Part shown: positions 13,901 through 14,880 of the stretch, piece by piece | Layout of the letters: the number at the start of each line of letters is the position of its first letter | How positions within the stretch are numbered: position 1 is the first letter of the stretch | Assembly (NCBI GenBank): GCA_043809315.1 | Contig: JAZDDX010000038.1 | Span: 14,159 to 78,158 of the forward strand | Direction of reading: 5' to 3' | DNA length: 64,000 nt | Source: Pseudomonadota bacterium | GTDB lineage: Bacteria > Bdellovibrionota_G > JALEGL01 > DATDPG01 | Position numbers and translations under genes: made by a program | Notes under the pieces: model-generated | Seen by the model: the letters and a program-made list of their open reading frames with translations, nothing else | What the model was told of the DNA's origin: nothing | Database searches by the model: none

Positions 13901-14002
13901 CTCTGCCGCCGCCGGGGAGGAGGTGTCTCTTCGGTCCCCTTTCCCACAGGCAAACAACAGGGAGACCAGAAGGAGCGCGGTCGGGAATCTCCGGATCCTC
14001 AC
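7925..14002 (-). CDS. Large RHS/YD-repeat family lipoprotein with FG-GAP/VCBS-type calcium-binding repeats, RHS core and 325-aa C-terminal domain of unknown function (polymorphic-toxin architecture)
   Basis: Signal/lipobox MRIRRFPTALLLVSLLFACGKGD. At least seven DFNGDGxTDLL-type repeats and many YD repeats (YTYDTQGRP..., YDSEGRL...). The RHS core ends ...LSARYYDPKIGRFLSADS...YAYARNNPVNSIDPSGH. GTG start overlaps the upstream stop (GTGA). Confidence 0.85.
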   Translation of the reverse strand: MRIRRFPTALLLVSLLFACGKGDRRDTSSPAAAEPGIIDQIGDWLSGKSSSMSPGFNPMSVYKAIPSSLPPVTFDYRDVPVGTATYDSMKFTTSSWPVPTQIPSTSYMSALFHDMKGRRVFTGDFDGDGKTDLLHVNSYNQIGGTNTYRTIFVLYRSDGTGGFEVKARENNLGTLNEFYALGSSNRAATPAKYFAADFNGDGITDLLEMKDYSRVGTSLADPHAILWVYDSGTGLKPLFKPGSSIEGFPSPYSQVTVNGSYPASLYSSKRKGSWLVADLNRDGKADLIHIMSKGHPSVRTWLSWSTDTQVSFDVSLDWQTATYSCTGYSNLCLNSGTTSPDDPNPGSATIVDPGELWKMGDFNGDGSTDLLHLYEDPLGKMHLWRWDSNATSFSVGELTNPDPNVQVERLHTALTADFNGDGVTDQLFPTLRRLWFGNGAGFDLFDVGDDSETSGFCGGEYTACSNIGNLAWVPRELIGATDLNRDGKTDLFYTISPTMNGNNGREIHFLTYDSKGQFRGHKTIVATGTDRNQEQFVQFGDFDGDSKADILSVVDGSTPASFSDCTNLPSGATCVPCAGVPGWGSFCGGGFLFQYACGQTQNFTGTFLGTLGCYHNNSYYGGTVQGGVPQAKIDLHRDDPFGGTDEFPRDNLLVSVTKEMGGAEKATYGVISQQAGDPVLRNSFPVVTKTSIYPHGLSGSSFSQTFEYKRATWLSPKGRFLGFATWKGTDSRGGIKETAFRLPTAETASECMFGGEGLNLTKDSDGKIISATRYDYTDADTGNGLCSSHTTSTRVYACEGSTTSALGLDNPALCKQVRTDFEYDEYGNEKKMKSFGEYQGTTTDLLPEDNTVTFRLFNPNKAAFIVNLPFYVSIISVDGNGTPISKLTYTEFLYDHRSVTQPPLKGLPTKISRWISGTTYAHTETTYDTQGRPLTVKDPDGYITTVAYDSEGRLQSTTDPGGHVTQTSWTVFGEVEIVGDPNGITVTNTYDKLGRKFLESYANGSFVQFQYLNVGNPCLAAGEACQRTRVARSDGSSDGLWSEDYFDGLGRIYETRNKSTTSLDYVVQKSTYVDASTLQETSTEWFDSATGIPSVSLFTYDTIGRLKTVKVDGVTETLLKNNYADKRGTFDLACTTVTDASNHATASCKEKLVSKVIEYDGTAIRTTTTTSNPLIPKVEVADPLGNVSSTTFDRIGRILQTTDPDRGTIRFTYTSGGRPLTRTDAKNQTIAFQYDTEGRPAKKIYPNGSQVVFTYGTDAAARNVDRITTVTYPGGSETFNYDDMGRKNIETRSVGAHTIQYRYFYDIASRPSHLVIPAPIGITVDYQYDAAGRLQSVPGYVDQISYWPQGMKKEIRLANGAVTTYDFEPDKLRRLKSIETVAWKDAAHTERTTIFKEQIDGYEADGRIKTITSTTHPAFNWNVTYDDLHRVTGVTGGINESYSYDPLGRITSHSANGAYQYTNPAHLHAVTKVGSRTYGYDANGNMTKAGCRTVTVGDETQMDAPALMSLLPAKRSAGGGTTTVVCDRVMTWDPEDRLASVQGGGWLFNFDYDANGNRIRKGSRLYFGNRVERTSGGEYITYIYAGPERVARVDSQGKHYYHTDHLFSARATTNSQGLLEEKIDYTPFGRKLRGQNSVQGFAGGDDDELGLTYLSARYYDPKIGRFLSADSIVPYPGSQSLDRYAYARNNPVNSIDPSGHVDESHSSYFSSGPADSDMLSRPAGVGPPCAGARAVCEMFHGPVSEEFASRDNYLREREQEQLDSAWAGELRKREEEEKKAKERVPTGVVEIGPIFYFTKLVTKDEPVEGPCRGCPAPDDPGLLTMMEEAARKGAPPSTTDRKSKVVDVDLLAAITDAEVRLWTLEAWLSGNFTNVYVVDNPDQIGPAVETALARGSRMGGANVLGILGIHGHGSVRRIDLLFALAVNGYSDFVFDQDTSKSFDVATLGNFNWGLSGRLDLITCTLGKGTIPDTLAHRIGVPVKSTSDLRSPFGTKPSEINWGTAYKLIFDRGALMTPVSWRLSKP

Positions 14003-14880
14003 GGCCGACCCGTCCTTTGAACGGCCTCCAGAAGGCTCTGGTTCGTGTTCCGGCTGATCCGGTAGCTCAACGTGTATTTCCGCTCCTGCTGGAACGTGGT
14101 CTGTCCCGCCAGCTTCATCTGGACGGCGACGGCCTGTAGACGGAACCGGGTCTGGCCCAGTTTCCCCACCATCGCGAACGACGGAGGATCCGGCCGGTTC
14201 CCGCTATCGTATGTGAACTGAACCTTGAAGTTTCCGGCTCCGTACAGAACCGAGTCGAGATAGACATCGTACGGATCGACGCACGGAAGCGTCGAAACCT
14301 GATACCCGTTCGTCCCGTCGTCGCAGGCGTAGGTGTAATTGGTGGAATGGCCGAACAGGTCTTCCGTCCGGGACAGACCCCACCGGACCACCGTGCCGCC
14401 GCTTCCTTCAACTTTTACCAACGGCACGTACGTGAGCTTGATCCCGTTCGGCCGGGTCACCTCCCAGTTGGTGCCGACTTGTTGTTTTACCCGGACCGAG
14501 TTGTCTTGTTTGAGGCAGTGCGTGCTTCCGACGGTGCTCCAAGGGGGAATCCCGGAGCAGGGCACCAACTCCTCCCCGTCCACCGCGTAGATGTCCGAAG
14601 GGGTCAGCGTCGGCAGAACGCCATGTTTTGACGTGCGGACGATGTCCGAGGCGGCGTGGAGCGACCAACCGACTCCCACACGACCGTTTCCGCCCCCGGA
14701 GTAGACCAGACTGATCGTCGGCTCGACGCCGTACCAGGCCGGAACGATGATCGACTGCGACGTTCGAAGCGATCCGGTCTGCGGATTGACGTTGAGCTGG
14801 GCGAACGAAAGGAACGGAAAAAGGAGGAGCGTGGCCGCAAGACCACAAAGCCCGATTGACTTCTCATGCGAGGCGGGCAT
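13999..14880 (-). CDS. Secreted SpvB/TcB N-terminal-domain protein (Tc-toxin B-subunit-like N domain as a separate polypeptide)
   Basis: Signal peptide followed by LNVNPQTGSLRTSQSIIVPAWYGVEPTISLVYSGGGNGRVGVGWSL, which matches the SpvB N-domain signature (VNPxTG...LSY.SG.GNG..G.GWSL). It is translationally coupled to the RHS gene. Confidence 0.65.
   Translation of the reverse strand: MPASHEKSIGLCGLAATLLLFPFLSFAQLNVNPQTGSLRTSQSIIVPAWYGVEPTISLVYSGGGNGRVGVGWSLHAASDIVRTSKHGVLPTLTPSDIYAVDGEELVPCSGIPPWSTVGSTHCLKQDNSVRVKQQVGTNWEVTRPNGIKLTYVPLVKVEGSGGTVVRWGLSRTEDLFGHSTNYTYACDDGTNGYQVSTLPCVDPYDVYLDSVLYGAGNFKVQFTYDSGNRPDPPSFAMVGKLGQTRFRLQAVAVQMKLAGQTTFQQERKYTLSYRISRNTNQSLLEAVQRTGRP

Follow-up and report, generated by a model that had tools for sequence, protein, structure and literature searches.

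A stretch of 64,000 nucleotides (nt) from contig JAZDDX010000038.1 (assembly GCA_043809315.1, positions 14,159 to 78,158; this whole stretch is called the window below) was found to carry two overlapping open reading frames (ORFs), which divide between them a set of domains that related bacteria usually encode in a single gene. ORF1 encodes a secreted protein consisting of the SpvB/TcB N-terminal domain by itself, and ORF2 encodes a lipoprotein with an FG-GAP beta-propeller, a rearrangement hotspot (RHS) shell, an Rhs core, and a C-terminal cargo domain. The alignments place the break between the two at the SpvB/propeller boundary of homologues that are single polypeptides of ~1900–2100 amino acids (aa), and by this comparison the pair is a clean fission of one ancestral gene and not a frameshift artefact. 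We consider it probable that the locus is a two-gene fission form of a Sec-exported SpvB, beta-propeller, and RHS polymorphic toxin, in which ORF1 docks to ORF2 to complete the shell. An earlier reading of the DNA made from its letters alone (the sequence-only reading) had singled out the separate SpvB gene as a peculiarity of this locus. The separate gene is real, but it is not unique to this locus, since the split recurs in several lineages of other bacteria; it represents a modest variation on a toxin class already known, and no new system.

The Pfam profile SpvB (PF03534) matches ORF1 with an E value of 4.6e-9 and 36.3 bits, against a cut-off of 22, although the profile covers only residues 33–108. 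When 1.8 billion representative proteins were searched exhaustively with phmmer, 2242 matches at E<1e-3 were obtained. Among the best 150, the proteins are mostly 1900–2600 aa in length, and in nearly all of them ORF1 residues ~30–292 align to the first ~250–300 residues. A word-indexed homologue search with ORF1 found the query itself only. The structure of ORF1 was modelled with AlphaFold2 from a 55-sequence alignment, since the model obtained from the single sequence was useless (predicted local distance difference test, pLDDT, of 36.5). The model from the alignment is all-beta and confident, with a pLDDT of 89.3 and a predicted template modelling score (pTM) of 0.85, and all of the invariant family residues in the alignment are present in ORF1. 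Using Foldseek, the model was matched to the SpvB N-domain (6p0x; E 2e-10, query-based TM-score, TMq, 0.66), to the YenB chains 4igl, 5kis, and 9c4k (TMq 0.67–0.70, with 0.70 for 9c4k), and to TcdB2-TccC3 chains (4o9x, 6h6e, and others; TMq 0.58–0.66). The Foldseek table gives no residue ranges, and the N-terminal placement of these matches rests on the sequence matches, in which ORF1 aligns with the N-terminal ~100 residues of the YenB and TcdB2 chains. ORF1 is thus a complete SpvB/TcB N-terminal domain by its Pfam match, its whole-length homology, and its structure model, and it has both the profile score and the SpvB N-domain/TcB fold that mark the PF03534 family. Its N-terminus reads MPASHEKSIGLCGLAATLLLFPFLSFA followed by QLNV and resembles a Sec type-I signal when judged by eye from the sequence. 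The sequence-only reading had described the 293-aa product as an SpvB/TcB N-domain made as a separate protein with a signal peptide of its own, and the profile and fold matches, with the signal read by eye, bear this out.

The junction of the two genes lies at window positions 13999–14002, where tcac reads GTGA on the coding strand, so that the start of ORF2 overlaps the stop of ORF1 by 4 nt. This is the GTGA coupling to the gene of an FG-GAP and RHS lipoprotein that had been proposed previously, and the overlap is plainly visible in the sequence. The two ORFs are in different frames. In the frame of ORF2, no start codon lies between the upstream in-frame stop at 14204–14206 and the GTG at 14002; an AAGGA (Shine-Dalgarno) motif ends 10 nt upstream of this GTG. 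The NCBI pipeline likewise annotates MFH1263842.1 and MFH1263841.1 as separate adjacent genes in this metagenome-assembled genome (MAG), which is labelled Pseudomonadota bacterium. Using blastp against eight fused homologues, ORF1 residues 30–292 were found to align to residues ~40–290 of the fused proteins, and ORF2 aligns from its residue 67 to their residue ~284 and onward through the Rhs core. The SSLPPVTFDY strand at ORF2 residue 67 corresponds to the LPxxTFxY motif of the fused proteins. Between the two aligned blocks lie ~13 residues in the fused proteins; at the same place here are found the stop codon of ORF1, the start codon of ORF2, a signal of 19 residues and its lipobox cysteine, and a linker of ~46 residues. 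The N-terminus of ORF2 reads (V/M)RIRRFPTALLLVSLLFA followed by CGKGD and shows, by eye, a positive n-region, a hydrophobic core, and a lipobox. The features of the two genes are as follows.

13999–14880, minus strand: ORF1, ATG start, 293 aa, secreted stand-alone SpvB/TcB N-terminal domain protein (NCBI MFH1263842.1)
14800–14880, minus strand: Sec signal peptide of ORF1 of the signal peptidase I (SPI) type, residues 1–27, predicted cleavage between SFA and QL (translation read by eye)
13999–14002, minus strand: GTGA overlap, in which the ORF2 GTG and the ORF1 TGA share 2 nt; presumed translational coupling
7925–14002, minus strand: ORF2, GTG start, 2025 aa, lipoprotein with FG-GAP propeller, RHS/YD shell, Rhs core, and C-terminal cargo (NCBI MFH1263841.1)
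13943–14002, minus strand: lipoprotein signal peptide and lipobox of ORF2, residues 1–20, LLFA before C20, Gly at +2 (translation read by eye)
13805–13942, minus strand: low-complexity linker of ~46 aa, ORF2 residues 21–66, with no fused counterpart (blastp colinearity and consensus of the 55-sequence alignment)
12083–13705, minus strand: FG-GAP/integrin-like beta-propeller, about residues 100–640 of ORF2 (Pfam FG-GAP_3 85.8 bits, FG-GAP 58.9 bits; approximate boundaries)
11774–12055, minus strand: TcdB_toxin_midN-like segment, ORF2 residues 650–743 (Pfam PF12256, 22 bits, under the cut-off of 24.8)
9131–11755, minus strand: RHS/YD repeat shell, about ORF2 residues 750–1624 (Pfam RHS_repeat 129 bits, TIGR01643, precomputed PF25023 TEN_YD-shell)
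8903–9130, minus strand: Rhs-associated core, ORF2 residues 1625–1700 (TIGR03696, 68.7 bits, full length 1–76/76)
7928–8902, minus strand: C-terminal domain of 325 aa, ORF2 residues 1701–2025, presumed encapsulated cargo or toxin (orphan sequence)
14881–15000, minus strand: AT-rich intergenic region 5' of ORF1, presumed promoter and 5' leader of the two-gene operon (sequence read; promoter function inferred)

Most ORF2 homologues likewise carry a precomputed PF12256 (TcdB_toxin_midN) domain. The Rhs core of ORF2 contains the autoproteolysis-type motifs YYDPKIGRFLSAD and PVNSIDPSGH, as read in the translation; the PxxxxDxxG motif of the Rhs core has been described previously (PMC7861908). The relatives of ORF2 among PDB sequences are Rhs effectors, bacterial teneurin-like proteins, and TccC/YenC chains. 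The C-terminal 325 aa of ORF2 gave no match in Pfam, NCBIfam, the PDB sequences, or a word-indexed protein search. This domain contains GILGIHGHG, then 53 aa, then DLITCTLG, and also a charged EEEEKKAKE stretch. We have only the impression that the GILGIHGHG...DLITCTLG pattern may resemble a caspase-like, clan-CD His/Cys dyad. The genes ccmB and ccmC are convergent to ORF2, with ccmC ending at 7765, which is 160 nt from the ORF2 stop. In several relatives a small ORF lies directly downstream of the RHS gene, unlike the situation at ORF2.

The Sec-exported RHS polymorphic toxins of the TcdB/TcaC type consist of a signal peptide, SpvB, an integrin-like propeller, and RHS repeats; the class is widespread, has no TcA, and carries a variable C-terminal toxin on the same polypeptide (Zhang et al. 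2012, PMC3482391). ORF1 and ORF2 belong to this class and not to the Tc toxins. They share with it the domain order, the Sec signal, and the lack of a TcA. An N-terminal signal peptide is present on both ORFs (by eye), and ORF2 has the RHS repeats, an Rhs core that ends in DPSGH, and a variable C-terminal domain. The identity to members of the class, which come from environmental bacteria such as Myxococcota, Actinomycetota, and Alphaproteobacteria, is ~25–32% in local alignments that extend over about 20–80% of ORF2. The locus differs from the class in that SpvB and the propeller are not on one polypeptide: SpvB (ORF1) is a separate polypeptide with its own signal, and the remainder, including the FG-GAP propeller (ORF2), is a lipoprotein. 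It differs also in having no recognizable toxin domain, the C-terminal domain being without detectable relatives, and no adjacent immunity gene downstream. Within the 64-kb window of the 113-kb contig, no TcA-type family was found among the scanned ORFs, which included every ORF of at least 490 aa, and the only ORFs of more than 1000 aa are ORF2 and a TPR protein. The claim that there is no TcA nearby therefore stands for the window, and this absence is not an anomaly because the TcdB/TcaC-type class normally lacks a TcA (PMC3482391).

The BC cocoon of the Tc toxins (YenB/YenC2, 4igl; TcdB2-TccC3, 4o9x) resembles the two proteins in the fold of ORF1, in the propeller, midN, RHS shell, and Rhs core motifs of ORF2, and in a shell built from more than one polypeptide. 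In the Tc toxins, however, the break is between TcB and TcC, inside the RHS shell, whereas here it is between SpvB and the propeller. The Tc division into a TcB (SpvB, propeller, and midN/midC) and a TcC (RHS, core, and hypervariable region) is not found in ORF1 and ORF2; the midN match is below the cut-off, and Pfam gave no midC match in ORF2. The canonical Tc subunits are not known to have Sec signals, whereas ORF1 and ORF2 carry them. Bacterial teneurin-like proteins also have a YD/RHS shell around a polymorphic C-terminal domain, and the Gram-negative members are predicted to be lipoproteins of the SEC/SPII (signal peptidase II) type (Raoelijaona et al. 2026, PMC13018210). The chains of PDB entries 9pt5 and 9ifo are matched at an E value of 2e-13 by the Rhs core of ORF2, and the similarity is limited to that core. 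On their single chain, the teneurin-like proteins have an FN-plug and an NHL propeller in place of SpvB and FG-GAP, and Pfam gave no NHL or FN-plug in ORF2; a downstream immunity gene is almost always present there and none is present here. The best structural and sequence match of ORF1 is the SpvB of Salmonella (6p0x), which is a precedent for an SpvB N-domain that is not on a propeller/RHS chain. That protein is fused to an ADP-ribosyltransferase and is a type III secretion system effector with no RHS partner, whereas ORF1 consists of nothing but the domain, is secreted through Sec, and has a coupled RHS gene.

The only close relative of ORF1 in the representative library is P0002 (E 5e-61, 42% identity), a complete 306-aa gene on a metagenome contig of 1154 nt (L001) that comes from a metagenome other than the source of the window. 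Its signal, MKRIASFFVLLTLAPTILWA followed by LS, is equivalent to that of ORF1. The TGA of P0002 overlaps the next ORF as ATGA, with a GGAGGAG ribosome-binding site, and the partner ORF begins MTRRALLWVSAFLFLSC, again a lipoprotein signal. The two-gene layout is thus kept in the closest relative, which answers the question of synteny that the sequence-only reading had raised. The fused form is the usual one: 17 of 18 related loci from genome and metagenome scans (Amycolatopsis, Kribbella, Nannocystis, Archangium, Polyangia, Microvirga, and others) have a single long ORF, and the 11 of these that are complete encode 1403–2087 aa. The scans, made with a two-sequence alignment, returned only fused distant relatives (≤35% identity) and one frameshifted fragment.

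About 29 of the best 119 ORF2 homologues have no precomputed SpvB domain. For each of the seven SpvB-less RHS homologues that were looked up, a gene for an SpvB domain lies within one gene of the RHS gene; five of these cases are clean, and two are degenerate or frameshifted. The SpvB genes are listed below.

L024: SpvB gene of 343 aa, 10 nt upstream of the RHS gene
L025 / L026: SpvB gene of 471 aa, 16 nt upstream of the RHS gene
L029: SpvB gene of 339 aa, 11 nt upstream of the RHS gene
L027, 1929–4703, minus strand: SpvB and Calx-beta, 924 aa, divergently transcribed neighbour of the RHS gene
L028, 1817–5179, plus strand: ZU5 and SpvB (SpvB C-terminal), 1120 aa, one gene from the RHS gene
L023 (Geotalea uraniireducens Rf4, CP000698.1), locus 5493–10554: SpvB remnant of 113 aa, 166 nt upstream of the RHS gene
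P0223 locus: SpvB gene of 258 aa with a 4-nt overlap with the RHS ORF; likely frameshifted

The RHS partners of L024 and L025 start with their own signal peptide, as read in the sequence. In the group formed by L024, L025, and L029, the RHS partner starts with a type-I signal of its own, behind which lies an Fn3-like domain, and the break falls after the LPxxTFxY strand, whereas the break in the window falls before that strand. In a rough neighbour-joining tree of the SpvB domains, the split forms are found in at least three groups among the fused forms. As judged from these domain sequences, the clean splits occupy at least three distinct clades, and gene fission at or near the SpvB–propeller boundary has happened repeatedly, with the SpvB piece being kept in every lineage examined. 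No description of a split between SpvB and the propeller was found in the searchable literature.

The SpvB gene of L025 is at 4569–5984 on the plus strand and has a C-terminal extension of ~170 aa. L023 comes from a cultured organism with a complete genome, and its 113-aa SpvB remnant ends inside the domain. The RHS partner there is a 1517-aa SpvB-less FG-GAP/RHS protein with no obvious signal peptide, and the locus, which is flanked by genes for outer-membrane proteins (Phenol_MetA_deg; OMP_b-brl/OmpW), looks degenerate. Several candidates for a clean split were rejected. P0008 (L002, 101–2635) is a fused gene with an in-frame TAG; P0058 (L004) is a shortened copy followed by an unrelated membrane-protein ORF; and P0037 (L003), which groups with clade B, stops 11 nt short of the contig end, too close for a decision. 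The P0223 locus was rejected as a frameshift, with a downstream ORF that starts with the SpvB tail TGRSLLTSIEQFGKD and has no signal peptide, and L009 is a fused gene broken by a frameshift. Many of the short "SpvB domain proteins" in metagenome catalogues are fused genes broken in these ways, by an in-frame TAG or a frameshift, and protein length alone therefore cannot identify a split.

The events that may have produced the locus, and the way in which its products may work, can be outlined as follows. The ancestral single polypeptide would have been cut at the SpvB/propeller boundary by the insertion of a stop/start overlap, a lipoprotein signal, and a short linker. The GTGA overlap suggests that the translation of ORF1 and ORF2 is coupled and would give the two proteins in amounts of about 1:1, and the two signal peptides suggest that each product is exported unfolded across the inner membrane via Sec. 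ORF2 would be lipidated at Cys20 and, from its lipobox, the Gly at +2, and the sorting rule of E. coli, is probably sorted to the outer membrane; there are precedents for this location in lipoprotein YD-shell toxins (PMC13018210) and in outer-membrane lipoprotein polymorphic toxins (PMC5562445). By analogy with the solved BC and Rhs structures, the RHS repeats of ORF2 would fold around its own 325-aa C-terminal domain, and the motifs of the Rhs core predict cleavage after H1700. The secreted ORF1 would then dock non-covalently, with SpvB forming a part of the shell wall and the N-terminal closure beside the propeller. The SpvB segment of TcB structures is described as one that "extends the YD-shell" and that acts with the propeller as a plug in the opening of the shell (PMC6425310). 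The most likely role of ORF1 is to complete the shell of ORF2 non-covalently, because the two ORFs are colinear with the fused proteins, because SpvB has this role in the TcB structures, and because the SpvB gene is kept beside SpvB-less relatives.

It is scarcely credible that the two ORFs are an artefact in which a frameshift error of sequencing or assembly has broken a single fused gene of the MAG. Such an error would explain why ORF1 and ORF2 are in different frames with a 4-nt overlap, and broken fused relatives do exist (the in-frame TAG of L002, the frameshift of L009, and the start of the P0223 ORF within an SpvB tail). These truly broken relatives, however, keep their homology straight across the lesion, whereas here homology to the fused proteins ends at residue 292 of ORF1 and is taken up again at residue 67 of ORF2. 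The gap holds a canonical lipoprotein signal and a linker with no fused counterpart, and P0002/L001, at 42% identity and from another metagenome, shares the stop/start overlap and the lipobox. A programmed frameshift that would fuse the two ORFs was also considered and rejected, since no slippery heptamer precedes the ORF1 stop and the fusion would bury the lipoprotein signal. The check for a gene split by a frameshift, which the sequence-only reading had called for, thus came out in favour of two genes. We regard it as very improbable that the locus is a recently broken, nonfunctional remnant in which ORF1, ORF2, or both are pseudogenes. It is true that RHS loci often degenerate, as in Geotalea uraniireducens Rf4 (L023), where only the 113-aa SpvB remnant is kept, and that ORF2 has an orphan C-terminal domain and no immunity gene. 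Both ORFs of the window are nevertheless of full length with their hallmark motifs intact; the new signal peptide, the Shine-Dalgarno motif, and the overlap count as features acquired, not lost; and the layout has survived divergence to 42% identity.

It seems unlikely, but deserves more weight, that ORF1 acts alone, for example in binding or as an adaptor, and that the shell of ORF2 is self-closing or open. Salmonella SpvB (6p0x) has the N-domain but no RHS, SpvB pieces elsewhere carry extra modules (the ~170-aa extension in L025, Calx-beta in L027, and ZU5 in L028), the SpvB gene of L027 is transcribed divergently, and the signal types of ORF1 and ORF2 differ. However, the SpvB gene is within one gene of the RHS gene in 7/7 of the SpvB-less relatives, the genes overlap by 4 nt in both the window and L001, ORF1 is the exact counterpart of a shell segment of the TcB structures (PMC6425310), and nothing in ORF2 could replace it. 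The two-gene toxin with a docked ORF1 is thus the reading that we favour, and the following points weigh against it. The clade with a lipoprotein partner (clade A) has two members, one of which is on a contig of 1154 nt. The signal peptides of ORF1, ORF2, and their relatives were judged by eye; as judged, that of ORF1 is SPI-type and that of ORF2 SPII-type, and the final locations of the two proteins could differ. The SpvB N-domain of Salmonella SpvB, which has no RHS partner, makes an independent role for ORF1 possible. There is no immunity gene 3' of ORF2, because the convergent ccmC leaves no room for one, and since the cargo of ORF2 matches no family, the word "toxin" is an assumption.

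An extension of the docking model, which we think rather improbable, is that the separate SpvB piece may serve as a detachable lid or gate of cocoons that have no TcA, so that its dissociation would open the shell and release the cargo. If this were true, the dissociation could occur on contact, by proteolysis, or after outer-membrane transfer, and the repeated fissions at one boundary would reflect selection for a releasable closure and not neutral splitting. The adhesion-like or autoproteolytic modules (Calx-beta and ZU5) on the SpvB piece elsewhere would fit with such a role.

Sec-exported SpvB–propeller–RHS proteins are abundant in soil and sediment bacteria, and the natural occurrence of SpvB as a separately exported subunit shows the segment to be a module that is both discrete and indispensable. 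The split provides an experimental handle on how RHS shells without a TcA close and open, with or without the SpvB piece. For genome annotation, small "SpvB/TcaC N-terminal domain" ORFs beside "FG-GAP repeat" giants can be treated as one system, and clean splits can be distinguished from the frequent copies that are broken by frameshifts or nonsense codons.

The base composition across the locus gives no sign of a foreign island. A scan for the sigma-70 consensus found no site in 14881–15000, and the promoter and terminator scan was uninformative. Upstream of ORF1, at 15001–15972 on the minus strand, is an ORF of 323 aa with a signal-like N-terminus and a C-terminus of ...TVTVRIF, ending in Phe. 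It had been taken for an outer-membrane beta-barrel gene, and this remains unconfirmed: the ORF has no Pfam or NCBIfam match and no homologue in any fetched locus, and its beta strand alternation is not above that of shuffled sequences.

Elsewhere in the window, the plus strand at 23011–26720 encodes a GatE-like protein of 768 aa, which has GatB_N and a large insertion, and after it a protein of 496 aa with GatD_N and asparaginase domains (GatD). GatD/GatE is an archaeal-type amidotransferase, found here in a MAG labelled Pseudomonadota by NCBI. A cluster of large secreted-type proteins is located at 27583–33501 and 44466–51150, and its members include a GH18 protein with an Ig-like domain, a C25 gingipain-like peptidase with a propeptide, and TSP3-repeat, VWA, and beta-helix proteins.

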